A stretch of 64,000 bases of DNA from a virus (IMGVR_UViG_3300032053_000047:8990-72989); one strand, 5' to 3'; shown: positions 7,220 through 43,780, numbered from the stretch's first letter. Numbers and translations are program-made. The notes: generated from the letters alone by a model not told the origin.

Positions 7220-8094
7220 TCGGCCACTACGTTACCGGCAATGACAAGGCCCATCTATATACGCCCACCTATGAACATTATTTCAACTGTCCCATCATAG
7301 GCACATTCAACGTCAAGATCGATGGACGCATTAACGATTACCGGCCCTGTATTGTAGATGAGCAGGAACTAGACCGCCGCTTTTGGGTTGTCCGTATCAA
7401 TGACAAATATTTCGCATGGGCGGTACGTTGGCGCGGTTCAAAAATGCCGTACAACATAATCGAACTCGTGTCCAAAATGCCGTTACCCGACGATCTCAAA
7501 GAAGGCGATCTATCTATCGAAGTGCTGGAACCGCTCATAGGCGCTGAACTCCAGAAGTGGATATCTCAGCAAACCTACTGGTTCCAAAGTTTCTCATGGT
7601 CGCCGCAACGGGCCGACTCGGCACTAGTATGGAACGCCGTCAAGGATCATGTGGATTGGTCTGGCAAAACATTACTCGATATCGGCGGGGCAAACGGGGC
7701 GCATTGTTTCCCGCCGTCGCGGCTGGGGGCGCGGGTTACGTGTTTTGAACCCGATACGCCCGCCCGCGAAAAAGGGATGTTCATAAACGACCATATTGAG
7801 ATGTGTGACGTGACCTTCTGCGATGCCGACTCCGATGGCGTGTTCGACGTGATTTTCTATTTCTCCGTGCATCACCAATGGGATGAAGCCTATTCGCATT
7901 TAGCGGAAACGCTTGCGCAGTTTAAGAATCGGGCGCGAGAGAAAGTCTTTGTCGAACTGATTGTACCTGACCTCACTAACAAACTCACTGAACTGCAGAT
8001 TGACGCGATTGTCGGCGGTCAACCACTTCTAACCTATCGGCACAAAGTACGGCGAGTGCGGCGGATTTATGAACTAATAGGGGAAGCCGAATGA
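7216..8094 (+). CDS. Class I SAM methyltransferase with N-terminal riboflavin-kinase-like domain
   Basis: LLDIGGANG motif I and FDVIFYFSVHH; N-terminal GTFNVK...IIELVS..L...LKEGD. Confidence 0.75.
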   Translation: MIGHYVTGNDKAHLYTPTYEHYFNCPIIGTFNVKIDGRINDYRPCIVDEQELDRRFWVVRINDKYFAWAVRWRGSKMPYNIIELVSKMPLPDDLKEGDLSIEVLEPLIGAELQKWISQQTYWFQSFSWSPQRADSALVWNAVKDHVDWSGKTLLDIGGANGAHCFPPSRLGARVTCFEPDTPAREKGMFINDHIEMCDVTFCDADSDGVFDVIFYFSVHHQWDEAYSHLAETLAQFKNRAREKVFVELIVPDLTNKLTELQIDAIVGGQPLLTYRHKVRRVRRIYELIGEAE

Positions 8095-8837
8095 TCTCTA
8101 TCGTCATGCCCACGTATAACCAAGGCTGGTATATCGCTGAATCCGTCCGCAGTGTTCTGGCGCAAACCTATAGCGATTTTGAATTGATCGTTGTGAATGA
8201 TGCTAGTACCGATGATACCGCGCAAGTGCTTAGTGCGTTTTTTCATCCCCGGATGATTGTCTTGACACGCACCGAAAACGGCGGCACGGGATTGACGTTA
8301 AACACCGGATTCAATGCGGCGTCACCCCAATCGGTTTATGAGACGTGGTGGGCATCAGATAACGTGATGTACCCGCAGAACCTGGCGATCCTTACGAAAT
8401 ACCTCGATGATCACCCTGAAATAGATTTCGTTTACGGCAACTGTGATATCCGGCAAATGGATGCGAACGGAAAAGAGATCGGGCGCAAAAACTTACTGGC
8501 TGAGGTTAAAACACAGACGTGGGATTTAGATCGCTTCTTACAGTCCTACCACCTCGGCATCTGCTGGTTATGGCGTCGGGCATTGCGGGAACGGGCCGGA
8601 TGCTGGTTTCAAAAAACACCTTGCGAAGACTATGACATGACCGTGCGTATGGCCGCTGTCGGCGGACAGTTTGCCCATATCCCGCAGACGCTCGGGTGGT
8701 TCCGGCGGCACAATCAGAATATGTCATGCCGCATCCGGGGCAAGGGGATCGCGCCGAATTACGCGCAGAACTTGCGCAAATTTCAGTATATCCAAGAACA
8801 CGGTATCAGTGCGTGGATGAAAGAAACGGCGCAATGA
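8091..8837 (+). CDS. Glycosyltransferase family 2
   Basis: ISIVMPTYN, SVLAQTYSDFELIVVNDASTD, CEDYD. Confidence 0.95.
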   Translation: MISIVMPTYNQGWYIAESVRSVLAQTYSDFELIVVNDASTDDTAQVLSAFFHPRMIVLTRTENGGTGLTLNTGFNAASPQSVYETWWASDNVMYPQNLAILTKYLDDHPEIDFVYGNCDIRQMDANGKEIGRKNLLAEVKTQTWDLDRFLQSYHLGICWLWRRALRERAGCWFQKTPCEDYDMTVRMAAVGGQFAHIPQTLGWFRRHNQNMSCRIRGKGIAPNYAQNLRKFQYIQEHGISAWMKETAQ

Positions 8838-9793
8838 AGATCCTACTCCTAAATTTGGAATTCGATTGCGGCGGCGCATCTTGGAATCTGATGGAGGCGA
8901 TCCGGACGTGCCACCCTGGGCACGAAGTCAGGCACGCCATATTCAAGACCACCTACGCCGCTCCTAATAGTGACATTCTATTCAAGCGAGTAGAAGATCT
9001 GTTGCCGTTCTGCGAATGGGCCGATGTGATTCACTTCAATAACTGGCTTTGGACACACAAACCCGGCAACAATCGGCTCGGGTTCTATCCCGTTAATGAG
9101 TATGGCGGACCCTCGCCGTTTGAATCCGTATTGCAGGACAAAAGCAAAACTATCGTTTATCATTTCCACGGCGGCAATCACCAACTCAACCCGAAATATT
9201 GGCTTGACGAATGCACTCGCATTGGCGTTCGTATCCTGAAATGCGACCCGTTGTGTCCGATACCCGGTGCAACATGGTTGCCAAACGTACTCGACCTGAA
9301 ACCCGCGCAGGTCTGCCGACATCAGCCGTTCGGCGTGGCTATCATGGGCAATGTTAGCGATCAACGCCGAAACAATTATGCTATCCAATCCGTGTTGAAA
9401 TACCTCGATATCCCGCACAAGTTTTTTGGTGAAGTTCCCCGTCAAATTGCTCTCGTGGAACGCCGCAAATACCCGGTGTGTATTGATAATCTCACCCAGG
9501 GGTTCGCAGGCATGTGGACGTGGGAAGCCCTCGCCATGGGACAGGTGCCGATTGCGCGGCTGGACCCGGCGGTAACGGTGCAATATCAGGGTGCGCCTAT
9601 TGTCCAATGTCCCAACCTCGATTGGGTATCATTTCGACTTCGGCGATTTCAGGATGACCCGGTATTCTGGGATCAATGGTCGCGGGCCGGGGTTGCGTGG
9701 ACGGAGGAACACAATTCATCTGCCGCGGTAGCGGGCCGGTATATCGAGTTTTACCAAAAGGCAAAAGATGATCCAGACAATCTCAATCATTGA
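8834..9793 (+). CDS. GT-B (GT4-like) glycosyltransferase
   Basis: MKILLL start, ADVIHF, HFHG, WEALAMGQVPI; ATGA coupling. Confidence 0.75.
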   Translation: MKILLLNLEFDCGGASWNLMEAIRTCHPGHEVRHAIFKTTYAAPNSDILFKRVEDLLPFCEWADVIHFNNWLWTHKPGNNRLGFYPVNEYGGPSPFESVLQDKSKTIVYHFHGGNHQLNPKYWLDECTRIGVRILKCDPLCPIPGATWLPNVLDLKPAQVCRHQPFGVAIMGNVSDQRRNNYAIQSVLKYLDIPHKFFGEVPRQIALVERRKYPVCIDNLTQGFAGMWTWEALAMGQVPIARLDPAVTVQYQGAPIVQCPNLDWVSFRLRRFQDDPVFWDQWSRAGVAWTEEHNSSAAVAGRYIEFYQKAKDDPDNLNH

Positions 9794-10310
9794 CATCTGC
9801 AACCTAATACTTAAAAAGTGGGGTGCTGAATCCGCCCTTGAACTCGGTTGCGGTATCTGCGGGATGATTTCCCGCCTGCATCTAAACGAACGCCGCGTCG
9901 GTATTGATAACTGGCAACCGTCTCTAGATGAAGCACGCGAGAAATTCCCTTTTGTAAAAACCATTTGCGCAGACATCCGCAGGGTAGGCGAGTTGTTCGT
10001 CCCCAGTAGTATAGATATCGTCTGCGGGTTCGATATCTTGGAACACCTCCTATATGCAGATGCTATGCAGGTTATGGATGCTGCCGAACGCATAGCCCGG
10101 AAAGGAGTCATTTGGTGGGGACCGCTCGAAGAAGACGAACCGCGCGATATTGAAACCCATGGCAACCCCGGCATGAAACACATACGGATTATCAACCTGA
10201 ATGAATTTGAGACACGGGATTATGAATTGATCACGTTTCCCCATTATTGGACAGAACTACCCATGTATGGGGCTACCGGATTTTTGGCATTCAAAGGAAG
10301 TGCGCAATGA
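9768..10310 (+). CDS. Class I SAM methyltransferase
   Basis: LELGCGICG, VGID, DIVCGFDILEHL. Confidence 0.9.
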   Translation: MIQTISIIDICNLILKKWGAESALELGCGICGMISRLHLNERRVGIDNWQPSLDEAREKFPFVKTICADIRRVGELFVPSSIDIVCGFDILEHLLYADAMQVMDAAERIARKGVIWWGPLEEDEPRDIETHGNPGMKHIRIINLNEFETRDYELITFPHYWTELPMYGATGFLAFKGSAQ

Positions 10311-11281
10311 CCCAATCAGGTCCGGCCTTAGTAACACAATATTTATCAGCCAGCACGTATCCGGCAAAACTGATTGCCGATCCGGGTACGATTGCGATGA
10401 TCAAACGCGGGTTTATCCCGCCCATTCACGTACAACTATCACCAACAAACCGTTGTACACGCGCCTGTAGTTTTTGCAACTGCCGGGGCCGCGACAAAGA
10501 CGCCGAACTATCATTAGCCCAGATCATGCAATGCCTCCGGGACTTTTTCTCGTTAGGTGCGCGGGCATTGACCATTACGGGCGGCGGCGAACCGCTTTGT
10601 TATCCCGATCTCGATGCCGTGATCGAGTTTGCTGCTAACCTCGGGTATGACGTGGGGCTGATCACAAACGGCGATTTACTGAGTGTGAAACCGTCAGATG
10701 CCGCGCTTCACCGCCTAACATGGTGCCGGATCAGTGCAAGCGATGAAACGAATCAGATAGCCGCACTGGAAGAGCGTGTTGCCGCCCATTTTTCCGTTGA
10801 CTGGGCGCTCAGTTATGTTGTCACGGCAAAATTCGATTCAAGTAACCTAATGGAACATATCGCATGGGCTGAACGCGCCAATATGACGCATATCCGCATC
10901 CTAGAAGATCACACCAATCTCGGCAAGACGCTGGGCATTGAACAGGTTGAAGCGCTTGTCGGGGTTGACAATCCGCGCATCATCTACCAGCACCGAAAAG
11001 AGTTCTTCCGCGGTCCCGCTAATTGCCGGATCGGATTGCTCAAGCCCTATGTCGGCTCTGAAGGAAACATATACCCCTGTTGCGGAATCCAATTCGCCCT
11101 CGGTGATAAACGATATGCTCTACCGAAAGAATTGTCTCTATGCGCTATTGAAGACATTAAAGAGTTCTGGCATAAGCCGACGCTATTCAACGGTTCCCAA
11201 TGCGTCCAGTGCTACTATCAAATGTACAATGACGTACTGCGGATTCTCACTTCCAATATTGCGCATGGGGGGTTTCTATAA
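10307..11281 (+). CDS. Radical SAM protein with SPASM/twitch-like C terminus
   Basis: CTRACSFC (CxxxCxxC), TGGGEP, ITNG, GNIYPCC, C-terminal CxxC. Confidence 0.92.
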   Translation: MTQSGPALVTQYLSASTYPAKLIADPGTIAMIKRGFIPPIHVQLSPTNRCTRACSFCNCRGRDKDAELSLAQIMQCLRDFFSLGARALTITGGGEPLCYPDLDAVIEFAANLGYDVGLITNGDLLSVKPSDAALHRLTWCRISASDETNQIAALEERVAAHFSVDWALSYVVTAKFDSSNLMEHIAWAERANMTHIRILEDHTNLGKTLGIEQVEALVGVDNPRIIYQHRKEFFRGPANCRIGLLKPYVGSEGNIYPCCGIQFALGDKRYALPKELSLCAIEDIKEFWHKPTLFNGSQCVQCYYQMYNDVLRILTSNIAHGGFL

Positions 11282-12202: not shown

Positions 12203-12474
12203 CTGCAACAGAAATTAGCGCACTCAATGCGACCGTAGACAAAATCCTCGGGGTTCTACAGGGTGAACCCGGCGAAACGGGACTTGTCAGTGAAGTTAAG
12301 GCTATTGGGGTAGAACTCGCTCAGCAAGGAGTCCGCCTTGAAATACACCTAACGGCACACAAGGAATGCGATACTAAAAAAGAAACTCGCATGTGGGATA
12401 TATTTAAGACCATACTTATTCCGCTTGCCGCCGGACTAGTTAGCGCAGCCCTCGTAGTATGGGGTCTAAAATGA
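12199..12474 (+). CDS. Small membrane protein (coiled coil + C-terminal TM helix)
   Basis: C-terminal ILIPLAAGLVSAALVVWGL. Confidence 0.6.
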   Translation: MTATEISALNATVDKILGVLQGEPGETGLVSEVKAIGVELAQQGVRLEIHLTAHKECDTKKETRMWDIFKTILIPLAAGLVSAALVVWGLK

Positions 12475-14348
12475 GCGCCCAGCGGGGTCGCCCCAACCTG
12501 CCGCCCGACGTGACGCGCGCGCAACAGGAACTTATCCGGGCATACCGAAATGCTACCCGGCGGCTAGAACGGCAACTCTCAGGAGCCGCCCTTACGGATT
12601 TCCAGCGGTTCCGAATCACCGAACAGCTTCAACAGATCCGAGTTATCATTGCAGCCCTTAATCAACAGGCCCAGGATGCCGCACAGCGCATGATCGGCCC
12701 ATCCTATAGGGTAGGGATCAAACTGTCCGCGGACGCCCTTGTACGGGCTGGTATCGAAGTGAATATGGGCAATGTATTGGCTACTGAGGCTATTGCGGTT
12801 GTTGCCGATCAAATGGCGATGGATCTTATTGCTGCGAATGCCAGTTTGGAAATACAGGCGCGGCGGTTTTTGCGGCTTACGCAACAAAAGTTGCTCACTG
12901 AACAACAGATTAACCAAGGGATCGCCCGAGGGATTATCGAAGGTGAAACCCGGAAACAGGTGAGCGACCGGCTGTTGAAGCAGCTTAAGGGGAAGATGGA
13001 AGAAGGCGCACGGATCGTTATCAAGTGCAAGGATGGCAAACTCCGGTCCTACGACCCGGCCCAATATGCCGAACTTGTAGCACGCACGCGCACGCGGGAA
13101 GCCGTTACGCAGGGGACGATCCGCACCGGCATGGACTATGAAGTCTACCTATTTCAGGTATCCGTGCATTCCGGGGCGTGTGAGATGTGTATCCCGTTTC
13201 AGGGCAAAGTGTTTGCTATAGTTGACGGTACGGGGTATCCGATACTAAAGGAAAGCCCCCCGTTTCATCCGAACTGCATTTTGCCGGAAACGCCTGTCTT
13301 TGCCCCTGGTAAGCGGGCCGCATTTGTTGCCGCCTACAACGGCCCGGTAATCGATATTATTCTGTCCAATTCCGCAAGGGTGTCCGTCACCCCGAATCAC
13401 ATGCTCCTGACCCCGACCGGGTTCGCTTTTGCAAAGGATCTTTGCGAGGGACAAGAGGTACTCTATAGCACCGCCTTTGAGAATGTAGTATTTGGACACC
13501 CAAATAATAACAACCGTCCATCCTTCATCGCGGATATAGTCGAATCGCTTTCTAAAACGAGCGGCATGTGCTCCAGTAGCGTGCCAGCTACCTCCGAAGA
13601 TTTCCACGGCGATGGGCGGTTCGTTAATAGCGACATCAATGTTATATGGGCCAATGGCCTTTTGCGAAGTAATATCGAATCCAAATCGGGCGAGGTGCCG
13701 AGCGAGAACGATTTCGATGGGACTGACATTGCTCTGTTTGGTCTCACGTGTTGTCGCACGACGGCAAAGATGCTCAAAACTTTGGCGCTTGCCGCGGACG
13801 GCATCATGGGCGGCTTTCGTGATGGCTGCGCGGCCCTCTGGCCCCATCTTCGCCATGGCAATTTTGGTGGCTTCGCTTCCAGTACGCTTCTTAATTTTAC
13901 CCCTGCGGAGAATTCCATCAATGACGCACTGAATTGTTCCGAATTCACGCATCAATTCTCCTACACTCTCTCCGGCACAATAGCGCGAGCAAATCTCATT
14001 CGCGGGCAACAACAGTCCCGGCCTTTGATTTCTCTTGATGCCCCGCCTTTTCAGGATGCCGTTAACATCAACGGGAAATTGTTTCTTGATTTCCTTAAAC
14101 GGAATTCTAGCCAAATAGGCGTTGCACACGTCGTCTTTAAGGGAATTCGGCAATATTCTGGGCATGTCTATGATCTCCAAACTGATTCATCATTATACCT
14201 ATGTAATGGCATAGTATCAAGTAATTGCGGCCATGTCCTAACTGCCTTTATCCCCCGCGACGACGAACAAAACACCGCCCTGCGCCAGTTTTCCCACACC
14301 CGGGGGGGCGTTGCAGATTATGAGGAATACCAGGCCGCAATAGCTTAA
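12471..14348 (+). CDS. Phage minor capsid protein (MuF/Phage_min_cap2-like), intein-containing
   Basis: YAELVARTRTREA, CEMCIPFQGK, and PPFHPN|CGH once the intein is removed. Confidence 0.88.
   Translation: MSAQRGRPNLPPDVTRAQQELIRAYRNATRRLERQLSGAALTDFQRFRITEQLQQIRVIIAALNQQAQDAAQRMIGPSYRVGIKLSADALVRAGIEVNMGNVLATEAIAVVADQMAMDLIAANASLEIQARRFLRLTQQKLLTEQQINQGIARGIIEGETRKQVSDRLLKQLKGKMEEGARIVIKCKDGKLRSYDPAQYAELVARTRTREAVTQGTIRTGMDYEVYLFQVSVHSGACEMCIPFQGKVFAIVDGTGYPILKESPPFHPNCILPETPVFAPGKRAAFVAAYNGPVIDIILSNSARVSVTPNHMLLTPTGFAFAKDLCEGQEVLYSTAFENVVFGHPNNNNRPSFIADIVESLSKTSGMCSSSVPATSEDFHGDGRFVNSDINVIWANGLLRSNIESKSGEVPSENDFDGTDIALFGLTCCRTTAKMLKTLALAADGIMGGFRDGCAALWPHLRHGNFGGFASSTLLNFTPAENSINDALNCSEFTHQFSYTLSGTIARANLIRGQQQSRPLISLDAPPFQDAVNINGKLFLDFLKRNSSQIGVAHVVFKGIRQYSGHVYDLQTDSSLYLCNGIVSSNCGHVLTAFIPRDDEQNTALRQFSHTRGGVADYEEYQAAIA
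13245..14165 (-). CDS. Vsr/DUF559-like homing endonuclease encoded antisense within the intein
   Basis: YNIDVAI...IAVEIFGGSWH...GWTVVIIW; N-terminal HTH-like repeats; alternative start at 14180. Confidence 0.8.
   Translation of the reverse strand: MPRILPNSLKDDVCNAYLARIPFKEIKKQFPVDVNGILKRRGIKRNQRPGLLLPANEICSRYCAGESVGELMREFGTIQCVIDGILRRGKIKKRTGSEATKIAMAKMGPEGRAAITKAAHDAVRGKRQSFEHLCRRATTRETKQSNVSPIEIVLARHLARFGFDITSQKAIGPYNIDVAINEPPIAVEIFGGSWHATGAHAARFRKRFDYIRDEGWTVVIIWVSKYYILKGGAIEYLLSLAKILCKSEPGRGQEHVIRGDGHPCGIGQNNIDYRAVVGGNKCGPLTRGKDRRFRQNAVRMKRGAFL
13275..14225 (+). mobile_element. Intein (317 aa) inserted in the HPN-C motif
   Basis: Starts CILPETPV; block B SVTPNHMLLT; ends YSGHVYDLQT...NGIVSSN, followed by Cys+1. 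Confidence 0.92.
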
Positions 14349-17209: not shown

Positions 17210-20170
17210 ATGGCCTATGACGCAGGTGCGGTGGTCGGCCATTTACGGATGGACATGTCCGGGTGGACGCAGAACGTCGCCAAGGCACAATCCGATTCAA
17301 CGTCACTCAAAGCGACTATGAAAAGCCTTGGCGATAGTGTCCGTATGGCGTCCCTGGCATTCGGCGCAATTGGTGCAGCCATAACCTTGCCTCTCAAAAA
17401 GATGATCATGTTGGCGGGTGAAGATCAGCGGATATTTGCGCGCCTGCAACGGGCTGTTGAAAACGTCGGCGTGTCGTGGTCGAGTGCCGCTAAACGTGTT
17501 GATGAATTTACCATGGCGATAGAACGGCAGTCCGTTTATAGTCACGATGAAGCGGCCGCATCTTTAACGCGCCTAATCATTATGACGGGCGATCTTGAGT
17601 CCGCCATGGGCGGCGTGAAATTGGCGGCTGATTTTGCTTCAAGCGGATTAGTTGATTTTCAAACTGCCTCTAAATACGTCGGTATGGCGATGTCTGGCCA
17701 GATATCTAAGTTGGGAAGAATGCTACCCGACATGTCGGTTGCCAATGATGAAATATTGAAGACGATGACCGGAGTGCAGTTAGCAGTATATGGGATTGAT
17801 CTACTACAAAAGAAATTCAGAGGACTATCTGAAGCCGAACTACAAACATTACCTGGCCAATTAAAACAGTTGCATAACTATCTTGATCTCGTACAGGAAT
17901 CTATCGGCGAGACGATGATTCCGACTGTAACGGATTTTGTGAAACGCATGGGGGATGCTGCAACCGGACTTACGCGATTCATAAAAGCCAATAGTGAGGC
18001 GGTCGGGAAAGTGACTTTAGTCGCATCGGGCGTAGGCGTTGCTTCACTTGCTATCGCTGCCATGGGTGCTACATTGACGCTAGTAGTCCCTGGTATAGTT
18101 ATGGGGTTTCATGCAATAGCTATTGCAGCGGGCGTAGCGTGGGCGGCGATACTTGGTCCCATCGGCCTTATAGTTGCCGGACTCGCGGGAGTTGCTGTTG
18201 CTGCCTATGTATTACGGGCGGAATTCAAACAGAATCTATATGGAATGAAAGCGGAATTCCAGGGGCTTGTTAATTTCATCGGCAAGGGTCTTGAAAACAT
18301 GGTGGGCAATTTTGGCGGGTTCTTTCACGTTGTCGGCAAAGGATTTATTAACCTATTTAATTCCATAGTCGGCGGTTGGATGGGGATCAATGCTGTAATC
18401 AATAGTAGTATTAGGAATATGTTTGATCCTAGTGGTCTTAATAAAGCTCTTGATGCTGGTCTTGCCGCAGTACGGAAGGACTATTTTGGGCCTCTATTCA
18501 ATTTTATAACAGATGAATTCAAAGCGGAATGGATGAATTTGAAAGAGATTGGTGCGGCAACTGCCGCACAAATGATAGCAGACATTGCGGTGATACGCGG
18601 AAAGTTTCCCGGTCAGTCCGTGGGCGAACAGATGCAATCCTGGTTTCCTGTTATACCTGAACCCAAACCCGCGCCTGGCGCATCCGATGTCGAAAAGGGG
18701 GCCGCTGATGCTGCTAAAAAGGCACTGGAAGATCTTATCGATGCGGGCAAAGCCGCCTATTACGCAATAAACCCGGTTGAGGGCATCTTTGCCAAACTAC
18801 AAGAGGATCTACTCGGTATAAAAGCCGCCGGATTACTTACCGATGACACGCGCAGCCTGCTCGGGGTTGCCTTATGGGACCAGATCAAAGAACTCGCACC
18901 TGCGTCTATACAGGCCATCATAGACAAGATCGCCGCACTTGACCCTGCAATTGCAGCCGCTACGGAATCGGTCCGCCAACTCGCCATAGCGGGCGAAGCC
19001 ACGAAGATCCTCACCGAAGCCCAACCCGATCTCATGGCGTTCCAAAAGATCACTGGCGAACTTGAAACGCTCAAAACGGCGGGCCGCATGGGCGACGAGA
19101 CTATGAACATCATGTCCGCCCAGTACTGGCGCGAATGGGGCGGCATGGCTGATGCGGAATTGCAGCGGCTCATAGATCGGCTCGACGAAATGGGTGGGGC
19201 GGCGGCGGAAGTTGGCGAACAGTTACGGACCAATATGGCGTTAGAAAGCGTTGAAAAAAAAGCCGATCCAGAACTGGCAAAAATCAATAGAAAAATAAAA
19301 GCGTGGGAGGATTTGCGCGGAATGGTAGGCAGTCTGGCAGGCGAATTATCTACCTTGGGATCAAATATGGGTAGCACGGCACTCCAGGCAATCGGACAAA
19401 TTATTAGTGCTCTACTTACTATGATAATCACCTACTATATGATGATGGCGGCGGCTATTGCTGCGGGAACGGCGGCGGCGATGGCATGGATGGCAATACT
19501 AGGACCAATTTATCTTGTTGTTGCAGCGATAAACCTTGTTATCAGTCTTTTCATGATGTGCGGTAGTACAGCCAAAAAAGAAATCACCACCATTCAAAAA
19601 TTGATGAAGGGCCTGCAAGACGTAATGAATTCCGCCATAGACAGTTTTGCCGACGCCTGGGTGGATTTCCTCGAAACCGGCAAGTTCGAGTTCAAGGAAT
19701 TTGTAGACAGCGTTTTGAAAGATCTTGCCCGTATGATGGCCCGGCTGGCCATGCAGGAAATTATCGGCGGTGTCTTTGGTCTAAGTGCAAGTGTGTTCAG
19801 CGCCAAAGGCAATGTGTTCAAGGCGGGCAACATCGTGCCGTTCGCACGCGGCGGCGTAGTTCCCTACCCCACCATGTTCCCCATGCCGGCCAACAAACGC
19901 GGCATGATGGGCGAGGCGGGGCCGGAAGCGGTGTTCCCGCTTACACGGACACGCGGGGGCGATCTCGGTGTGCGGGGACAGGTTGCGCCGGTCAACATCG
20001 TGGTCAACGACATGCGCCGGGGCGGCGAGCCGGTCCAGGTATCCGAACAGACGGCCCGCGACGGCACACGGCAATTACAGATCACAATCCGCGACGCCAT
20101 TGAGAGCATTGCCGCTGAAGGCGGGTTAAAGCGCACACTCCGGCTGGCAGGCATACAGGGGGCCTACTAA
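17210..20170 (+). CDS. Tape measure protein
   Basis: 986 aa, Ala/Gly-rich helical; lambda-type C terminus FARGG...MGEAGPEAVFPL. Confidence 0.95.
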   Translation: MAYDAGAVVGHLRMDMSGWTQNVAKAQSDSTSLKATMKSLGDSVRMASLAFGAIGAAITLPLKKMIMLAGEDQRIFARLQRAVENVGVSWSSAAKRVDEFTMAIERQSVYSHDEAAASLTRLIIMTGDLESAMGGVKLAADFASSGLVDFQTASKYVGMAMSGQISKLGRMLPDMSVANDEILKTMTGVQLAVYGIDLLQKKFRGLSEAELQTLPGQLKQLHNYLDLVQESIGETMIPTVTDFVKRMGDAATGLTRFIKANSEAVGKVTLVASGVGVASLAIAAMGATLTLVVPGIVMGFHAIAIAAGVAWAAILGPIGLIVAGLAGVAVAAYVLRAEFKQNLYGMKAEFQGLVNFIGKGLENMVGNFGGFFHVVGKGFINLFNSIVGGWMGINAVINSSIRNMFDPSGLNKALDAGLAAVRKDYFGPLFNFITDEFKAEWMNLKEIGAATAAQMIADIAVIRGKFPGQSVGEQMQSWFPVIPEPKPAPGASDVEKGAADAAKKALEDLIDAGKAAYYAINPVEGIFAKLQEDLLGIKAAGLLTDDTRSLLGVALWDQIKELAPASIQAIIDKIAALDPAIAAATESVRQLAIAGEATKILTEAQPDLMAFQKITGELETLKTAGRMGDETMNIMSAQYWREWGGMADAELQRLIDRLDEMGGAAAEVGEQLRTNMALESVEKKADPELAKINRKIKAWEDLRGMVGSLAGELSTLGSNMGSTALQAIGQIISALLTMIITYYMMMAAAIAAGTAAAMAWMAILGPIYLVVAAINLVISLFMMCGSTAKKEITTIQKLMKGLQDVMNSAIDSFADAWVDFLETGKFEFKEFVDSVLKDLARMMARLAMQEIIGGVFGLSASVFSAKGNVFKAGNIVPFARGGVVPYPTMFPMPANKRGMMGEAGPEAVFPLTRTRGGDLGVRGQVAPVNIVVNDMRRGGEPVQVSEQTARDGTRQLQITIRDAIESIAAEGGLKRTLRLAGIQGAY

Positions 20171-35574: not shown

Positions 35575-36672
35575 TCAGGTAAATCGCGCCTGCGCCGCGT
35601 CTAATTTCGGCTTGCAATTTCCGGGGTGGACGTAGTGCATTGTCATGCGGATATCGCTATGCCCGGCCTGTCTCTGGACATCCGGCAGGGGTATTCCCCA
35701 AACGTTGACGGCCAGACTGCAAAACGTGTGGCGGAGGTCTTTGACGTTGCACCGCCGCTCGAATCCCTCAGCTGCCAATGCCCGCGTGAGGCCATTGTAG
35801 AGGATGTTGTTCGTGAGGGGATATCCCTCAGTCCCAGTAAACACAATTTCACTACTGATCCCCCGCACCCGTTCCCGTTCCAGGACAGCAATCACGGCCC
35901 CGCTGATTTCAAATGTTGCTAGTCGCCGCGCCTTCTTTTGAGTCCGTTCCACAATTCCCGTTTTCAGGTTTACTTGCCGCCATTTCAGCGCCGTCGCGTC
36001 CGAAGGCCGCTGGCCAGTCAATCCAATCCATCGGATACAATTGGCAATGTGTGGCGCTCGTTGGGCGACAATTTCAAAGACGCGGGCGAGTTGATCCTCA
36101 GTCAGCGGCCAGATCTCCGGTTCCTCGCATTTCGGCAGGAGCCATTTGCGGATCGGCGACTGGCCTATCAGTTCCCGATCCACAGCGGCGTTCAGACAGG
36201 CCCTCAACATCATCAGCCGGTTCCGCGTCGTCTTGGCCGCATGGCCATCCCGGATGCGGCTGTCGGCGGCCCAGGCGTCCACAGTAGCCGGTGTGAGTTG
36301 GGATACCCGCCCGATATTGCGGCCCGCGCAGAATTGTTGGAAATCATATAGGACGCGGTTCGCCAGCGCGATTGTGCCGTCCGCAGCATTTTTCGCAGGT
36401 AGCACTTTATCTACATAATGGTCAACAATATCCCGAATACGGGGCCCCGCCGGGTCTTCCCCATCGGTCTGGGCCTCAGCAGCATGGTCTGTTATGAGTG
36501 CCGGCACGACTTCTTCCTTATATTGAGTCAGTGCGGCGTGGGCCTCAGCCTCCGACTGGGCGTTTATAAGCCGCCGGGTCCGCTCCTTTGTCCCCGGCCA
36601 ATAAGTACTAATCCCCCAGCGGTTTTTGGCGCGGTTGCGGTAGAGTGAGACGATAGGTTCGTTACGGCGCAT
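35575..36672 (-). CDS. int: Tyrosine integrase
   Basis: TGQRPSD (catalytic R), KDLRHT, AGHSDIRMTMHY. Confidence 0.95.
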   Translation of the reverse strand: MRRNEPIVSLYRNRAKNRWGISTYWPGTKERTRRLINAQSEAEAHAALTQYKEEVVPALITDHAAEAQTDGEDPAGPRIRDIVDHYVDKVLPAKNAADGTIALANRVLYDFQQFCAGRNIGRVSQLTPATVDAWAADSRIRDGHAAKTTRNRLMMLRACLNAAVDRELIGQSPIRKWLLPKCEEPEIWPLTEDQLARVFEIVAQRAPHIANCIRWIGLTGQRPSDATALKWRQVNLKTGIVERTQKKARRLATFEISGAVIAVLERERVRGISSEIVFTGTEGYPLTNNILYNGLTRALAAEGFERRCNVKDLRHTFCSLAVNVWGIPLPDVQRQAGHSDIRMTMHYVHPGNCKPKLDAAQARFT

Positions 36673-36947
36673 GGGGCGACTCGGTTTTGACGACTTCAAC
36701 TACGTCATCACCCGGCGCAGCATCGACTATCCGCATACTCATTTTTATCTTGTTTGGGGCGCATGGTAGGGCGGTTAGGACGACCTTTTTCCCAGCTTCC
36801 CGCAATGTGTCCGCGGGGAGTTTATCCGGCCATGCCCGTATGTGGCGGCGGTGGATTTCCGCATAGGTTTCCCGTTGCGTTCGGGCGATGACCTCCCCTT
36901 CACGTTCACGGAATGAACGGGTATCAGGCGGATCTTGCCGGATCATG
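36662..36947 (-). CDS. Hypothetical protein upstream of the integrase
   Basis: ORF overlapping the integrase start; start uncertain. Confidence 0.4.
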
Positions 36948-38649: not shown

Positions 38650-38678
38650 TTGACAAATCTAGGTAAATCGTCTAAGAT
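38650..38678 (+). promoter_or_regulatory. Rightward early promoter with repeated (AA)TCTAG operator-like half-sites
   Basis: TTGACA-N17-TAAGAT; TCTAG repeated four times within 38613-38695. Confidence 0.75.
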
Positions 38679-38704: not shown

Positions 38705-39016
38705 ATGAACAAAGACAATAATGACCGCCCGCCGAGGGCTGAACGGCTTCGTGAATTACGCGGTGAACGAACCCTCCGCGAAGTAGCTAAACAGTTGGGG
38801 CTTTCACCTGCAACCATATCACTTAATGAAAATGGATACCCAATTTCCGCCGAGGTAGCCAACCTCTACAGCCAATTCTATGGCGTCGAAGTATCCGAAT
38901 TTTGGACGCCACCGGAACTTCCAATGGCCGACGCGGCCCAATCCGCGTCCTCTTGCGCTGACAATAGTTTACCACTGGCCGACGAAAATTTCAACCTGGA
39001 AGATGTCCATGCCTAA
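38705..39016 (+). CDS. Cro-like XRE HTH regulator
   Basis: LRELRGERTLREVAKQLGLSPATISLNENG. Confidence 0.9.
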   Translation: MNKDNNDRPPRAERLRELRGERTLREVAKQLGLSPATISLNENGYPISAEVANLYSQFYGVEVSEFWTPPELPMADAAQSASSCADNSLPLADENFNLEDVHA

Positions 39017-39299: not shown

Positions 39300-39341
39300 C
39301 GAAAACGGAGGGGATCTGAAATTTGAATCGGCAACGCCGAC

Positions 39342-39415
39342 GGCAGGCTTGGCGCGGCTAGGCACGGCGAGGAATGGCCTGGCTAGGACCGGCTGGGCAC
39401 GGCATGGGATGGTTT
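39342..39415 (+). repeat. GGN-NN pentamer array 1 (candidate guide RNA)
   Basis: GGCA followed by 14 in-phase pentamers, all starting GG (10 of 14 GGC). Confidence 0.9.
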
Positions 39416-39434
39416 ACAAAATGGAGGAAACAAC

Positions 39435-40106
39435 GTGAAGAAGACAGAGGAAGCGGAAGCGGCACCAAAACAAAAGACGGTTTTAATTGAAAAGCCAAAC
39501 ATGGAAATCGGGCTTTTCCGTATCCGTGGAACGGCTCCTTATGTGCAACACCGTTTCGCCACGAAAGCCAAGGAAATGATGAAGGCGAAACAGGAAGCCG
39601 GATCAACGGCAGCAAAAGGCGCAAAGCGAGAAGCTAAAAACTTCATGGCAGAGTATGAGGCGGCGATGTACAAGATCGGCGCAAACGGGAAACCGGTGGA
39701 ACATGGCATTCCCGCGCCTGCATTCCGTAACGCCATGATCTCGGCTTGCCGGGTTGTCGGCTTCCCTATGACGCGCGGCAAGTTGGCCGTGTTTGTGGAG
39801 GCCGATGCGTTCGATGAAAGCGACGGCACGCCCTTGGTGCGCATCATCAAAGGCAAACCCCACTGTACTGAAATGCCAGTGCGCCTCGAAACAGGCGTGA
39901 TCGATATTAGGGTACGCCCGATGTGGGACGCGGGGTGGGAAGCCGAAGTGCGTATCCGATTCGATGCCGACATGTTCACGTTGGAAGACATCGGAAATCT
40001 GTTGTTCCGGGCGGGCGTGCAGGTAGGTATCGGTGAAGGACGGCCCGACAGCAAAAAGTCCTGCGGGATGGGCTGGGGGTTATTCGAGGTTGTCAAAAGC
40101 AAGTAG
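39435..40106 (+). CDS. Stand-alone RAMP/Cas7-like protein
   Basis: FRIRGTAPY strand, GIPAPAFRNAMISA helix, C-terminal G-rich loop GIGEGRP...GMGWGLFEV; SD GGAGG. Confidence 0.75.
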   Translation: MKKTEEAEAAPKQKTVLIEKPNMEIGLFRIRGTAPYVQHRFATKAKEMMKAKQEAGSTAAKGAKREAKNFMAEYEAAMYKIGANGKPVEHGIPAPAFRNAMISACRVVGFPMTRGKLAVFVEADAFDESDGTPLVRIIKGKPHCTEMPVRLETGVIDIRVRPMWDAGWEAEVRIRFDADMFTLEDIGNLLFRAGVQVGIGEGRPDSKKSCGMGWGLFEVVKSK

Positions 40107-40134
40107 CCGCCGCTGTGTGTGATAGTTGAATCAA

Positions 40135-40280
40135 GGCAGGCACGGCGGGGCCGGGCATGGCGGGGCTCAACGGGGTTCGGCTTGGCGCGACTTGGCGAGA
40201 TAGGCTTGGCAGGCGCGGTTCGGCGGGGCGGGGCGGGGCGGGGCGGGGTATGGCACGGTTCGGCAAGGCATGGCAGGCAT
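40135..40280 (+). repeat. GGY-NN pentamer array 2 (two candidate guide units)
   Basis: ~26 pentamers punctuated by 4-nt GGCA units at 40135, 40208 and 40272. Confidence 0.9.
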
Positions 40281-40321
40281 GAAACGGTTGAGTGAGCGAA
40301 ACGACGAAAGGACAGAACGGA

Positions 40322-40774
40322 ATGGACAGTTCAGTGTTGGATGAACTTGAGATGATCCGCGTCAAAAGCGGCGGCGTGCTCAAGCCAGAAGATGTAGTCC
40401 AGCGGGCGAAGGGCAAAAGCAACCCGCTACACAAGTATTTCACATGGGATGATACGGCGGCGGCGCGTGAATACCGCCTGTGGCAGGCCCGTGAGTTAAT
40501 CCGCGTTCATGTGCGTATCGAATCACCGGGGCAAACATTTCCAACCCGCGTGTACGTCAGTCTCGATGCCGACCGGCAAGATGCGGGCGGCGGGTATCGC
40601 CACATCGACGACGTGTTAACCAATACAGACTTGCGCAGCCAACTACTTGACGAGGCCGACCGCGACTTCCGGTATTGGGAAGCCAAGTATTCACACTTGA
40701 AAGAACTCGCTGGCGTTATCGAATCAATGGATATGGTGCGGACAAGACGTAGCAAGAAATCCAAGGCGGCGTAA
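40322..40774 (+). CDS. Conserved phage protein, putative partner of the RAMP-like gene
   Basis: LKPEDVV...PLHKYFTWDDTAAAREYRLWQARELIR. Confidence 0.7.
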   Translation: MDSSVLDELEMIRVKSGGVLKPEDVVQRAKGKSNPLHKYFTWDDTAAAREYRLWQARELIRVHVRIESPGQTFPTRVYVSLDADRQDAGGGYRHIDDVLTNTDLRSQLLDEADRDFRYWEAKYSHLKELAGVIESMDMVRTRRSKKSKAA

Positions 40775-40784
40775 CGGAGGCCAC

Positions 40785-41060
40785 ATGACGGCACGTAAGT
40801 GGAAACAGAAACGGGCATTACAGCGGTTCGCGGAGGCGGTCCAGGCGCTACCCGGATTAGCCTTATGGGGAAAATGCAAAACGCTTGAAGACGTTCTGTA
40901 TCGCGTTGCCCATCCCGCTTGGCTGCCAATTGTAGATGCATGTACGGAAAGAACTGGTTTTGCGCCAATGGATGCGGCCAACATCGAATCCCGCAAGGAT
41001 ATTCGCTGGCTCTACCGGAGGTTACTTACCGCCTGCGGTGTTGATGCACGGCACGTATAG
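40785..41060 (+). CDS. Hypothetical protein
   Basis: SD GGAGG. Confidence 0.6.
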   Translation: MTARKWKQKRALQRFAEAVQALPGLALWGKCKTLEDVLYRVAHPAWLPIVDACTERTGFAPMDAANIESRKDIRWLYRRLLTACGVDARHV

Positions 41061-41240
41061 GAGAGGGGCATGAAAACGGCGATAGTCGCGTGTAAATGCG
41101 CACACGCATGGCAGGACGCCCGTTACGGCGCACACAACCGCGTGCATAACTACTCCCCGAACAAAACTTCGCCGAAATGGGTTTGCACAGTATGTCGCGC
41201 TGAAAAACCAGCGCCTAATATTTAAGAAAGGAGAGGAACT

Positions 41241-41474
41241 ATGAGACTAGAACTCTACGGCAGTGGACCACCGCAAGAGCAGGTGACACGGATTCGGGTG
41301 CGGCAAAATACTGACGCCATCATTATTGACGCAGTTGATGCCAATGGCAACCAAGTAGAGCATGGACTTTTGTTCGAGTTGACACCTAAAGGCCTTGAAT
41401 GTTTTTGCAAGGTTAATAAGACATTGGGATTTCCCCTTGAAGGTGCTGGTTATATCAAGGTCATTAACAAATAG
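41241..41474 (+). CDS. Hypothetical protein
   Basis: SD AGGAG. Confidence 0.6.
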   Translation: MRLELYGSGPPQEQVTRIRVRQNTDAIIIDAVDANGNQVEHGLLFELTPKGLECFCKVNKTLGFPLEGAGYIKVINK

Positions 41475-41531
41475 CCTCCTTCCGCCGCGAGCCGGGGCGC
41501 GGAGTAGTACCCCGGCATAGAATTGAACTGT

Positions 41532-41604
41532 AGTCGTGTAGCGCAATAGGTAGAGCGCGGCGCTGTTAACGCCGAGGTTGTAGGTTCGAGTCCTACCGCG
41601 ACTG
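41532..41604 (+). tRNA. tRNA-Asn(GTT)
   Basis: Full cloverleaf; anticodon arm CGGCG-CTGTTAA-CGCCG; T-arm GTAGG-TTCGAGT-CCTAC; no encoded CCA. Confidence 0.93.
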
Positions 41605-41629
41605 TTAAAAGTTGAAGAACCGATCCCCG

Positions 41630-41727
41630 GTGTGCCGCTGGGCACGTTCATCCTCACCATCCAACCCAGTAGCCGATTCACTCAGATAGGGACGCGCCAC
41701 CCTCGCGTCCCATGCTCAGCGGCACAC
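41630..41727 (+). ncRNA. Structured RNA with a 15-bp closing stem and C-rich interior
   Basis: GTGTGCCGCTGGGCA/TGCTCAGCGGCACAC. Confidence 0.55.
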
Positions 41728-41749
41728 TATAAAAATTGAATAGCTTTTT

Positions 41750-41814
41750 GATGTGCTGGGAAATGGTATAGCGGAGTTTGATAGTAAACAGGTTTCGATT
41801 CCTGCCAGCACATC
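41750..41814 (+). ncRNA. Minimal tRNA-like RNA
   Basis: GATGTGCTGG/CCAGCACATC stem plus a CAGG-TTTCGATT-CCTG T-arm; no anticodon arm. Confidence 0.55.
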
Positions 41815-41987
41815 GAGTTTGCGAGGATGTCACCGGGATTACCCGATGGCATTTCCGCAAAGTGGCGTCACCTGCCGTGCTCCGTTTATGCCTAGGCTGA
41901 GCGAAGTGGTGAGGGAACGCCGCCAGACTAGGCGTGACTTAATGCCACGGTTCAGAGTAACCGAGGCGAAGAAATTGAATAGTTCTT

Positions 41988-42175
41988 GATGTGTTGCGGC
42001 GTGGTGGGACACGCTAAAAGGCGGCAACGACCGGCTAGAACCACAAAGGGGTAGTGACCCTTTCGATTGTCGGTAAGTAGGTGAGCTACTTGTAAGACGA
42101 GCGCGGAAAGTGCCGATATTGACCCGCGCATGTGGAACCGAACAAACGGGCAGGTTCAAATCCTGCCAGCGCATC
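41988..42175 (+). ncRNA. tRNA-like RNA with a ~135-nt insert
   Basis: 9-bp acceptor-like stem, D-arm GCGT/ACGC, T-arm GCAGG-TTCAAAT-CCTGC. Confidence 0.6.
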
Positions 42176-42269
42176 GAGTTTTTGCCCGCCGAATGAGGGC
42201 AGTAGAACGCGAGAGAGGAGGTGGTCCGCGAGACGGCTAAGCGGACCCCATGACACAGTTGAATCTGAT

Positions 42270-42371
42270 CTTTGGCGTGCTACCGGCTACCCTTGCGGAA
42301 CATGCGCGAACCCTGCGGACTGTCTAGACAGCGCCGTAGCAAGTATGCACTAACGGTTTAGCACACCAAAG
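42270..42371 (+). ncRNA. Structured RNA with a 13-bp closing stem
   Basis: CTTTGGCGTGCTA/TAGCACACCAAAG (one mismatch); TTGAA leader and T-run trailer. Confidence 0.45.
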
Positions 42372-42493
42372 TTTTTGCGGCCTGTGATGCCGCGAGCGGC
42401 GACACCAAGGATTCAATCTAGCCGCATAGTGCGTGCGGTGCCGGGTTTGTGGAAACTTTCCCGGCACCGCCCTCCCCAACGAAAGGAGAACTA

Positions 42494-42850
42494 ATGTTCA
42501 GGTTAACGACAAACGACGATACTGTTGTGTTTCAGGTCCCGTGTGGAGAGGGAACTATCCGCTTTGAATGTTATTGCGGAAGCGGAGGCGCTGCATTAGT
42601 CGTTGCTAATGCACTTCGCAATGCCCATCCGGTTCTCTTCGACACCATTGAAACGGAACCCCATGTGTTAAAAAGTGAAGGGGATTGGCTACGTGAACGG
42701 TTACATGAAGTACAGACGAAAATGGATCGTGCCGTGGCGGAGATACGCGATTTGGAGAAGATAGCGAAAAATACATCACCTATCCCTACACTTCAAGAAT
42801 TTGGATTGTTTCGAGACGCCGTGTTCGCGGCGGTGAAAAGAATCGAATAG
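42494..42850 (+). CDS. Hypothetical protein within the RNA cluster
   Basis: SD AAGGAG before ATG 42494. Confidence 0.6.
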   Translation: MFRLTTNDDTVVFQVPCGEGTIRFECYCGSGGAALVVANALRNAHPVLFDTIETEPHVLKSEGDWLRERLHEVQTKMDRAVAEIRDLEKIAKNTSPIPTLQEFGLFRDAVFAAVKRIE

Positions 42851-42869
42851 TTACCAAAGTTGAATTCGT

Positions 42870-42958
42870 GGGCGAGTGGCGAAATTGGCAAACGCAGCGG
42901 ACTTAAAATCCGCTACCCCGGCCAGGGGTTTTTGTAGGTTCGAGTCCTGCCTCGCCCA
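42870..42958 (+). tRNA. tRNA-Leu(TAA)
   Basis: GGGCGAG/CTCGCCC acceptor; GCGGA-CTTAAAA-TCCGC anticodon arm; long variable arm; T-arm. Confidence 0.93.
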
Positions 42959-43373
42959 TCTTATGAATTATTAAACTATTAGGTTTTGGCTAATAGTTGC
43001 CCCGGAGAGTACGGGTATACAGTTGAATATTTTTAGGTGTGCTGTGGCCGAAGGAATGCGTGACGGGCGCGAGAAATCGCGTTGGTAGTGCGACGACGGC
43101 CCCAACGGTCGGCTCAATGATGGAGTAAGGAACAAACCCCTAGAGCAGCAAGCAGGTCAGCCGGGCGCGGGTGATTTTACCCGTAATGACAGTACAGGCC
43201 GAGATAATCGCCTGATAGCCATAGTATACCGATTTCCCAGCAGCGACCTTGCGGGGCCGTGCGGTGACATGGCGTAGCTCTCCCATAGAGAACGTCATGG
43301 CATCGTTACATCAACCCGTTCCGGTTCTATCACGGCTGAGGCCGGACGCCGCTCGGATAACAGTTGACGGGTA

Positions 43374-43487
43374 TCGGCGGATGTCCCAATGGCACTGTCC
43401 AGGAACAGTGGTCGGGCTTCGTGCGGTGCGTCCCTGGCGGGTGCGTGGGGTTCGATTCCCCAACGCACAGAATGCAGCATCCGCCGA
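43374..43487 (+). ncRNA. T-loop-containing structured RNA
   Basis: TCGGCGGATG/CATCCGCCGA 10-bp stem; GGGG-TTCGATT-CCCC hairpin. Confidence 0.5.
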
Positions 43488-43549
43488 GTTTTAGCGATGC
43501 CAAGGAGCGGGTCAACAGCGGCCCGCCCCCGCAAAGAAAGGAAAATGAT

Positions 43550-43780
43550 ATGAAAATCGTAGACAATAGAATCACTAAAACATCAATAATGGTAAATTCA
43601 GAAGATATTAAAGTGGGCATATATTTTATGGGACGCATCAATGAATGTAACGGCCTTTTCTTGCGTATCTATGAGGGAGTCGTATTTATCGATGATCCGG
43701 CCTATACGTGGAATGGATCGTGTGATGTAAGTGAGTACGAGCCTATCGAGGTCGAGATCCACATTGAACGGAACCCGTAA
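43550..43780 (+). CDS. Hypothetical protein
   Basis: SD AAGGA before ATG 43550. Confidence 0.55.
   Translation: MKIVDNRITKTSIMVNSEDIKVGIYFMGRINECNGLFLRIYEGVVFIDDPAYTWNGSCDVSEYEPIEVEIHIERNP

Follow-up and report, generated by a model that had tools for sequence, protein, structure and literature searches.

A predicted array of small structured RNAs, partly tRNA-derived and preceded by a shared sequence tag, in a phage genome from sediment

We have analyzed a stretch of 64,000 nucleotides (nt) of viral DNA (IMGVR_UViG_3300032053_000047:8990-72989), here called the window, and specifically a region of its plus strand, at positions 41475-43540 counted from the first letter of the window, that is nearly devoid of protein genes and holds two transfer RNAs (tRNAs) together with six or more further folded RNAs. 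The window corresponds to bases 8990-72989 of a source record of 72,989 nt that is complete according to CheckV, and the stretch was present only in sediment metagenomes (3 sequencing runs, none of them listed as RNA). Both tRNAs named in an initial annotation of this DNA were recovered by ARAGORN and by the Rfam model RF00005: tRNA-Asn(GTT) at 41531-41605 (65.2 bits) and tRNA-Leu(TAA) at 42869-42960 (60.3 bits), both on the plus strand and without an encoded CCA. Besides these two, neither ARAGORN nor Rfam at curated thresholds detected anything else in the cluster. The same annotation had seen a single credible open reading frame (ORF) in about 2 kilobases (kb), and this was borne out by our analysis. 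Between the ORFs at 41241-41474 and 43550-43780, the only one provided with a ribosome-binding site (AAAGGAGAA) was found at 42494-42850 on the plus strand, codes for 118 amino acids (aa) and is inserted inside the RNA array. It gave no match in Pfam, PHROG, PADLOC or NCBIfam, and seven other overlapping ORFs (60-144 aa, on both strands) gave no Pfam match. Comparison with relatives rests on the last 2231 nt of a metagenome contig of 6007 nt (L007) and on fragments found in two sediment metagenomes (X2 and X3). The insertions and deletions with respect to L007 were of 8, 2 and 1 nt, none of them a multiple of 3. Taken together, the one ORF with a ribosome-binding site in 2 kb, the lack of Pfam matches among the others and the size of these indels indicate that the region is non-coding.

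All the RNAs of the cluster are marked at their 5' side by a similar short sequence. Each of them, both tRNAs included, starts 3-11 nt downstream of the heptamer RTTGAAY or of a one-base variant of it, from here on the tag. Exact copies were found on the plus strand at 41522-41528 (ATTGAAC, 3 nt before tRNA-Asn and identical in L007), 41735-41741 (ATTGAAT, before the unit that we call C), 41974-41980 (ATTGAAT, before unit D), 42258-42264 (GTTGAAT, before unit E), 42859-42865 (GTTGAAT, 4 nt before tRNA-Leu, a distance of 8 nt in L007) and 43022-43028 (GTTGAAT, before unit G). The two variants, on the same strand, are GTTGAAG at 41611-41617, before unit B, which in L007 is ATTGAAT and thus nearer to the consensus, and GTTGACG at 43363-43369, before unit H. 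In this way, all eight sites stand within the given distance of a unit. The exact motif was much denser in the cluster (6 copies in 2066 nt) than in the rest of the plus strand, where 61,934 nt contain 30 (Poisson P about 6e-4). When 15 sites, taken from both the window and L007, were pooled, the consensus was aAmA-RTTGAAY, with TTGA invariant and with variation in the flanks of the tag and in the bases between tag and stem; one of the 15 (L007_1785) lies inside a unit of that contig, unit X, and is not a boundary. The tag resembles the 5' handles that are common among CRISPR RNAs. RNA anti-CRISPRs imitate the CRISPR repeat of the host in both sequence and structure; anti-CRISPRs of this type are named in PMC13687109. 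The consensus obtained for the T4 RegA-type repressor by systematic evolution of ligands by exponential enrichment (SELEX) is described as containing AAAAUUG, in common with the tag (PMC3014915). A binding site for such a repressor was therefore among the readings considered for the tag; the RegA family (PF01818) gave no match in the record, and the control genomes gave none either.

Units closed by long stems had been proposed at these places by the initial annotation, and we found six of them on the plus strand, with closing stems of 11-16 base pairs (bp). Unit B (41629-41728, folding z -5.1) has a closing stem of 16 bp and an inner 8-bp hairpin at 41689-41711. Unit C (41747-41817, z -3.5) is closed by 13 bp and unit D (41985-42178, 194 nt) by 12 bp, three of them G.U. 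The stem of unit E (42270-42371, z -2.1) has 13 positions, 6+6 bp around a C/A mismatch, and encloses three hairpins. Unit G (43036-43230) has a closing stem of 13 bp (three G.U) and about six hairpins inside with no T loop, and unit H (43374-43487, z -2.2) has a stem of 11 bp, two hairpins and a minihelix with a T loop at its end. For each tag we took the best contiguous stem with a span of 45-230 nt that begins no more than 14 nt downstream, and compared it with those at 1500 random positions of the window. The fraction of random positions with an equal or better stem was 0 for B, 0.002 for C, 0.012 for D, 0.003 for G and 0.012 for H, i.e. five of the six closing stems were longer than about 99% of the stems at random positions. 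Unit E, with its interrupted stem, failed the contiguous-stem test (0.15). It is the weakest unit and has its interior deleted in one relative. The folding z was -3.1 on the plus strand and -1.7 on the minus strand for D, and -3.0 and 0.0, respectively, for G, although z is a weak discriminator here since the true tRNAs scored just -0.9 and -2.9. When the six stems are read on the plus strand, 11 of the 12 non-Watson-Crick positions are G.U and only one is C/A. DNA inverted repeats would show both kinds equally (binomial P about 0.003), which argues for RNA stems transcribed from the plus strand.

T-loop hairpins had also been announced for three of the units, and they were found in C (with a variant loop of 8 nt), D and H. 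The plus strand of the window has four copies of the motif GGTTCRANNCC, every one of them within the cluster (tRNA-Asn, D, tRNA-Leu and H), and unit C carries a variant of it that is one base longer. The T-like arm of unit C has a 4-bp stem and a non-standard loop (GGTTTCGATTCC), arranged as CAGG-TTTCGATT-CCTG, and its stem abuts the 3' strand of the closing stem; a D-loop-like AATGGTATAG is present and there is no anticodon arm. Unit D is tRNA-shaped, with a hairpin similar to a D arm (GCGTG-GTGGGA-CACGC), a branched domain that takes up about 125 nt at the position of the anticodon arm and a perfect T arm (GCAGG-TTCAAAT-CCTGC) directly against the 3' strand of the closing stem. In unit H the minihelix has 10 bp (GTGCGTGGGG-TTCGATT-CCCCAACGCAC), with TGGGG-TTCGATT-CCCCA as the T hairpin. 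The outer pairs of the stems of C and D use YTT before GATG and GAG after CATC, which accounts for the conserved GAG found after both units. If the stems of the different units are assumed to be homologous, there are compensatory changes among them, A-T versus G-C at the second pair and C-G versus T-A at the eighth. None of C, D and H matched RF00005 at E<=10 in a search of 2.7 kb, and ARAGORN did not call them at default, intron-allowed or mitochondrial settings. For unit D a call required an 80% threshold and a forced intron of 105 nt, and the anticodon stem was poor. The calls obtained with lowered thresholds or introns were all forced and overlapping, and we discarded them. C, D and H are predicted to be RNAs that re-use tRNA parts and yet cannot decode, whereas B, E, G and the spacer modules sp1-sp4 described next are non-tRNA folds.

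Between the units there are further hairpins on the plus strand. A leader (41476-41521, z -0.9) with a GC-rich hairpin (CCGGGG...CCCCGG) lies between the stop of the ORF at 41241-41474 and the first tag. Spacer sp1 (41818-41972) contains a long hairpin at 41818-41862 followed by others (z -3.8 for 41817-41972), sp2 (42179-42256, z -2.6) contains two hairpins, and sp3 (42374-42480, z -3.3) three, including one of 11 bp (GCGGTGCCGGG/CCCGGCACCGC), followed by CCTCCCC. Two small hairpins after tRNA-Leu (42961-43021, z -1.8) are not conserved in L007, and the hairpin-rich stretch between G and H (43233-43361, z -2.0) is weakly supported. The last hairpin, sp4 (43488-43545, z -2.0), precedes the ribosome-binding site of the ORF at 43550-43780. 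Immediately after units C, D, E and H there are 3-5 U and then one of these hairpin modules (sp1-sp4); B and G have no U-run. The interior of unit B (41645-41688, about 44 nt) is C/A-rich (CAUCCUCACCAUCC...) and predicted to be unpaired, and in L007 it is also C-rich but different. By its composition it could pair with purine-rich ribosome-binding sites, and no target was found in the phage itself. An 11-nt complementarity between unit C (41754-41764) and 43232-43242 was at the level estimated for chance in 2.2 kb and was discarded.

The tag, the closing stems and the U-runs could be read as the signals of independent genes, each unit being a small-RNA gene with the tag as its own promoter and the closing stem plus U-run as its terminator. 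This differs from a reading of the tag as a shared maturation signal, to which we return below, only in how the RNAs are made, and we regard it as unlikely. In the matrix of 15 sites the would-be -11 A was present in 13, the -9 A in 13 and the -7 T in all 15, and hexamers such as TAGAAT before tRNA-Asn, TATATT before unit X of L007 and TACAGT before G resemble a -10 box. Besides, the predicted start, about 7 nt further on, falls 0-8 nt before most of the units and also at the beginning of a guide tract of the neighbouring VIPR system (40133), a system whose guide RNAs are reported in SUSP1 as discrete transcripts of about 100 nt (10.64898/2026.04.26.720920). Four units (C, D, E and H) do precede a U-run, whereas B and G do not. 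Actually, the highest conservation was found at TTGAA (15, 15, 15, 15 and 14 of 15), letters that lie mostly past the hexamer, in a part of sigma-70 promoters that shows no conservation, and the would-be -12 was a T at only 4 of the 15 sites. There is no -35 partner, and a sigma-70 scan of the plus strand of 41475-43540 did not find any promoter. We also tried TTGAAT itself as a -35 box and dropped it, as no -10 was found 16-18 nt after it in any unit.

We have compared the cluster with L007, a contig that was found with a pattern composed of the tag and the beginning (5' end) of tRNA-Leu. The leader (41472-41530) was identical at 58 of 59 positions (98.3%), tRNA-Asn at 75 of 75 (100%) and unit C at 64 of 65 (98.5%); tRNA-Leu showed 96.8% identity, with both substitutions in the T loop, and sp3 93.6%, with the changes in loops. 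In unit B the closing strands (82-88%) and the inner hairpin (87%) were kept and the interior had diverged to 50%, with the indels of 8, 2 and 1 nt. As a reference, the neighbouring coding gene was 79.9% identical and the spacer between B and C 71%. The B of L007 still folds, with a closing stem of 13 bp and the inner hairpin, and pairing survives two substitutions in its 3' strand, A>G (T-A becoming T.G) and T>C (G.T becoming G-C). Therefore C, sp3 and the stems of B are more strongly conserved than the nearby coding and spacer DNA.

The content of the array varied among the relatives. L007 lacks the ORF at 41241-41474, the segment sp1-D-sp2-E and the ORF at 42494-42850, and has an additional tagged unit X between B and C (12-bp stem, z -3.6) and a different unit after tRNA-Leu. 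X2 lacks sp1-D-sp2-E, the 118-aa ORF and unit H (it passes from 43361 to 43519, with 43362-43518 missing); L007 ends before the region of H. In the metagenome contigs 41817 is followed by 42372, a deletion that lies between two copies of GAGTTT, and the segment between 42479 and 42868 is replaced by 14 nt that bear the tag, these being what occupies the place of the 118-aa ORF in L007 and X2. X3 passes from 42286 to 42366 and has lost the interior of E (42287-42365). Spacer sp1 is absent from L007 and X2 with its start present in X3, where sp2 is also partly found. All this indicates that the units behave as cassettes that are gained and lost among relatives. The 118-aa ORF, located between sp3 and tRNA-Leu, behaves for its part as a moron-type insertion in the RNA array.

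Other searches did not yield further relatives. Blastn against 50,697 phage records gave tRNA-sized matches only. Scans of viral contigs anchored on the 118-aa ORF (ORF118), the VIPR accessory (vap) candidate described below, a 316-aa ORF, ORF76 and ORF77 gave three loci (L002-L004) without tRNAs or a cluster of tags and T loops, and a scan of genome contigs gave one weak match (L005) without the cluster. In the viral contigs there were no matches to DNA patterns made from the 3' end of C and D or from the tag plus tRNA-Leu, and a closing-stem pattern gave five matches (about five being expected by chance, as an estimate), none with a T loop, tag or tRNA. Of the two metagenome matches, the one other than L007 (L006) turned out to be an unrelated AT-rich chromosome.

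This kind of turnover would also be expected if the non-tRNA units were functionless pseudo-tRNAs or debris left by a tRNA array in continuous change, and T-even phages provide a precedent, since their tRNA regions vary and the tRNA genes and ORFs are reported to differ between T4 and T2L (PMC2330249). Such an origin would fit the presence and absence of units among close relatives, the truncation of E in X3 and the recognizable tRNA pieces of C, D and H, units that fail the tRNA models, and the conservation data cover none of D, G and H. We consider it rather improbable all the same. Unit C is 98.5% identical in L007 versus 79.9% for the adjacent coding gene and 71% for the spacer, B has kept its stems over a diverged interior, and the tag has been retained before every unit in both genomes. 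Stems of 11-16 bp exceed the 7 bp of an acceptor and are therefore not simply inherited from tRNAs, and the excess of G.U over C/A suggests selection on RNA pairing.

The cassette behaviour raises in addition the question of mobile DNA, i.e. that the units are DNA elements such as miniature inverted-repeat transposable elements, recombination sites or integron-like cassettes. They have the adequate size (65-200 bp), their terminal inverted repeats share the core GRTGTGCTG, and they are present or absent in relatives with deletion end-points in repeated flanks (the GAGTTT copies between 41817 and 42372). GTTGAAT also fits the letters of an integron core site. Against this, the mismatches of the stems are 11 G.U to one C/A on the plus strand, the flanks do not have target-site duplications, the T arms keep the geometry of tRNAs, and true tRNAs bear the same tag. 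The tag has no paired inverse core site and neither a transposase nor an integron integrase was found nearby; the integron core site was dropped as an identity for the tag and we consider DNA elements in general very improbable.

The genes of the window are those expected in a temperate, tailed, lambda-like siphovirus. They include an SPP1-type portal (77-1666), an SU10-type capsid protein, a tape-measure protein (17210-20170) and a J-like tail protein, followed by a tyrosine integrase on the minus strand (35575-36699). A consensus sigma-70 promoter-like site (38650-38678) precedes a Cro-like helix-turn-helix gene on the plus strand (38705-39016), and from this gene to past 48 kb every gene is on the plus strand, which places the RNA cluster within what we predict to be the early rightward region of the phage. 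Another near-consensus sigma-70 promoter at 32401-32440 (TTGACT, 17 nt, TATAAT) indicates that the host uses ordinary bacterial promoters. Among the structural genes we have also observed a segment (5464-11281) coding for a protein with a sialyltransferase-like PHROG match, a family-2 glycosyltransferase, a methyltransferase-like and a radical S-adenosylmethionine protein. A Mu-F/minor-capsid-like protein of 629 aa (12459-14348) showed a weak match to an intein splicing domain over residues 288-588 (E 2.5e-4, below the cut-off).

Upstream of the cluster, the RAMP locus mentioned by the initial annotation proved to be real and specifically of the VIPR type, on the basis of a protein with a Csm3/Cas7 fold and flanking GGY/NN tracts. 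VIPR has been described as a RAMP-fold protein, Vipr, with a glycine-rich loop, flanking GGY/NN RNAs and an accessory gene (10.64898/2026.04.26.720920). Here the system (39322-40285, plus strand) contains tags, GGY/NN tracts and vipr (39435-40106, 223 aa, Csm3/Cas7-like fold), and is followed by the vap candidate (40292-40774, plus strand, 160 aa, PHROG 15946, without a Pfam match). The tracts, also on the plus strand, were located by a regular-expression scan at 39346-39370 (by eye to about 39410), 40139-40168 and 40212-40276. There is a run of 13 units, and about 30 further units in the gap of 185 nt after vipr. The Vipr protein has more than 7000 metagenomic homologues, the best 120 of them 58-82% identical and one labelled as CRISPR-associated. 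Its AlphaFold (AF2) model had a predicted local distance difference test (pLDDT) of 80.6, and Foldseek gave 38 PDB matches at E<=1e-3, which among the 29 listed were Csm3/Cas7-type chains or complexes with template modelling (TM) scores of 0.33-0.48. The C-terminus is GIGEGRPDSKKSCGMGWG and direct sequence likeness to the Vipr of SUSP1 is weak (E 0.49). In view of the modelled fold and the tracts, 39322-40774 appears to be a complete VIPR-type locus with all the features listed for such systems.

The tag is found here too. TTTGAAT at 39322 lies 17 nt before the tract at 39346, and GTTGAAT at 40125 is separated by 1-7 nt from the tract that follows it, that is, the sequence that marks the units also precedes the VIPR guide tracts 1.4-2.2 kb upstream of the cluster. 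Given this, and the location of the cluster 0.7 kb past the vap candidate in the same orientation, it could be thought that the cluster is one more part of VIPR, providing further guides, guide tails or decoys for Vipr, but the evidence makes this improbable. The GGY/NN repeat defines the VIPR guides, and no run of four or more units was found on either strand of 41475-43540 with a regular expression. The portion examined of contig L007 keeps the RNA cluster with no match to vipr or vap and with a different repeat module upstream. In the cyanophage Cy-LDV1 a homologue of vipr (54.8% identity) is accompanied by GGY/NN tracts and the tag is absent; downstream of the gene there is neither an annotated tRNA nor a sizeable stretch lacking annotation, in a genome that was not scanned for tRNAs. 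Besides, the word 'tRNA' does not appear in the text of the three VIPR preprints. From the lack of GGY/NN runs in the cluster, the lack of a vipr match in L007 and the tracts without tag of Cy-LDV1, the tag looks like a lineage-specific small-RNA signal in general rather than a component of VIPR. The initial annotation considered it probable that cluster and RAMP locus belong to the same transcript, and this is now less certain, with a terminator-like hairpin on the plus strand (41197-41214) lying between them.

The non-VIPR content of L007, at 1-1160 and upstream of the homologue of the ORF at 40785-41060, deserves a separate comment. It contains an ORF truncated at its 5' end, whose match to the IS110-type Transposase_20 is weak (E 0.0014, below the cut-off), and after it about 13 repeats of 36 nt (AGCGAGYCA-N9-AGACAMCCA-N9) that are open as an ORF of 173 aa with SEPxxxRQPxxx repeats; Tandem Repeats Finder misses the array. 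The repeat words are invariant even at synonymous positions, so that this may be a programmable-repeat RNA array and not a protein.

The explanation that we prefer, and to which we would give about even chances, is that of small structured RNAs, some of them derived from tRNAs, arrayed on the plus strand and with a maturation signal in common. Each cassette would consist of the A-rich tag, 3-11 nt and the long closing stem that joins the two ends of the unit. The array would be transcribed with, or like, the early genes. Cleavage by endonucleases of the host at the tag, which is A/U-rich and single-stranded, and at the long stems would free each unit, RNase P would act on the true tRNAs, and the products would be stable small RNAs. 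Flanking stems direct the release of ribosomal RNA from its precursor. With the elbow of a tRNA (T loop with D loop) and no anticodon, C, D and H would occupy proteins that read tRNA shape, a binding that their folds hint at weakly. The tRNA parts suggest for these units a role as decoys or mimics, and a function in conflict, either between phage and host or between phages, seems the most plausible, because the locus is accessory and variable and has VIPR as its neighbour. In a more speculative extension, for which we see only a small chance, NUUGAAY would be an address label by which one phage or host factor cuts or loads VIPR guides, tRNAs and tRNA-scaffold RNAs. The cassettes would then be an RNA-only counterpart of an anti-defence island, with the tRNA-shaped members acting as decoys for tRNA-directed nucleases or for the RNA-guided systems of rival phages.

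Several observations weigh against an array of functional RNAs with a common maturation signal. The tag is also compatible with a weak -10-like hexamer (nAnAnT, with the first T of the tag as its last letter) and a conserved TGAAY after it, which makes a promoter for each unit possible. As units D, E and H are absent or shortened in relatives, none of them is indispensable, and the comparative data do not extend to D, G or H. Between orthologues, with one usable relative, there was no fully compensatory pair change, and the one substitution found in C (C>G at 41788/9) makes the proposed T-like stem weaker. Phage genomes being mosaic, recent exchange and not selection may account in part for how similar C and sp3 are. 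Searching the rest of the window for antisense targets of the cluster gave none (best E 1.6).

Should the array be confirmed, the tag that marks every unit as well as the VIPR guides would be a concrete handle on RNA production, and the natural variants in whole cassettes would be ready-made deletion mutants. The locus gives clear candidate cases of tRNA parts re-used as non-decoding RNA scaffolds. If it is true that the tRNA-shaped units bind factors of the host or of rival phages, they would be RNA-level weapons beside an RNA-guided inter-phage system.

We have looked for known RNA families in the cluster. The initial annotation had called its RNAs unexplained, and Rfam agrees: at up to E 10 it gave, besides the tRNAs, only Plastid-ycf2 (E 3.2, antisense to tRNA-Leu) and mascRNA (E 7, in unit H), both at chance level, and L007 likewise gave no further match. 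Covariance models of self-cleaving ribozymes and of GOLLD and ROOL did not match the cluster. Transfer-messenger RNA (tmRNA), characterized by pseudoknots, a tag reading frame and a tRNA-like domain with G3.U70, was discarded in view of the absence of a default ARAGORN call and of an Rfam tmRNA match at E<=10; the 'permuted tmRNA' calls obtained at low threshold span several units. The order of elements in unit D (acceptor-like stem, D-like hairpin, large insert, T arm) is reminiscent of tmRNA, but its third stem pair is U.G instead of G.U and there is no plausible tag reading frame. Allo-tRNAs are described as having an acceptor branch of 12 bp (8/4 or 9/3), with lengthened acceptor, shortened T stem and retained anticodon (PMC5389517). 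Compared with that description, unit C has a branch of 13 + 4 bp and no anticodon arm, and was not assigned to them.

A similar architecture is found in the YrlA-type Y RNAs of bacteria, reported to have a long closing stem and an internal tRNA-like module with T and D arms, some of them being in phages and some cut by RNase P (PMC4201824). The units of the cluster share the long closing stem, and those with tRNA parts the internal tRNA-like module. In the YrlA RNAs described, the order is 5' GNCGAAN0-1G, V, T, acceptor-like hairpin and D, with the gene on the same strand as that of Ro60/TROVE and at 4 kb or less from it (PMC4201824). In C and D, in contrast, the T arm is the final element, lying against the closing stem, and in H the T hairpin is not followed by a D arm; the short motif is present only in G (GCCGAAG at 43046-43052, right after the 5' strand of the closing stem), a unit without T or D arm. 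Ro60/TROVE (PF05731) gave no match in the whole record of 72,989 nt, with positive controls. We thus rejected a bacterial Y RNA identity on two grounds, the lack of a Ro60 gene and the different order of the arms.

The RNAs of VIPR itself (vrRNAs) are described with 9-16 GGY/NN repeats and a conserved 3' tail (10.64898/2026.04.26.720920). The likeness to the cluster is that of phage small RNAs arrayed beside a RAMP-like gene, in this phage with the same 5' tag; in the absence of GGY/NN tracts, we did not consider the units to be vrRNAs. In the literature on phage tRNA-like or tRNA-cluster RNAs, a full-text search did not find any such array described. The shared tag, its use by the VIPR guides of the same phage, the cassette behaviour and the particular folds are new here.

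Finally, the tRNA region of T4 has two extra stable RNAs, RNAC and RNAD (species 1 and 2), that are described as having unknown roles (PMC3014915). They have no sequence or Rfam link to the units found here, which belong to a phage predicted to be temperate, are many more in number and include three with T loops, and the shared 5' tag and the cassette turnover are not described for T4. RNAC and RNAD have paired ends and are processed along with the tRNAs. Phage tRNA islands have thus been known since T4 to hold extra stable RNAs, and the units of this cluster, as putative stable non-tRNA RNAs located amid phage tRNA genes, resemble those of T4 in this respect.

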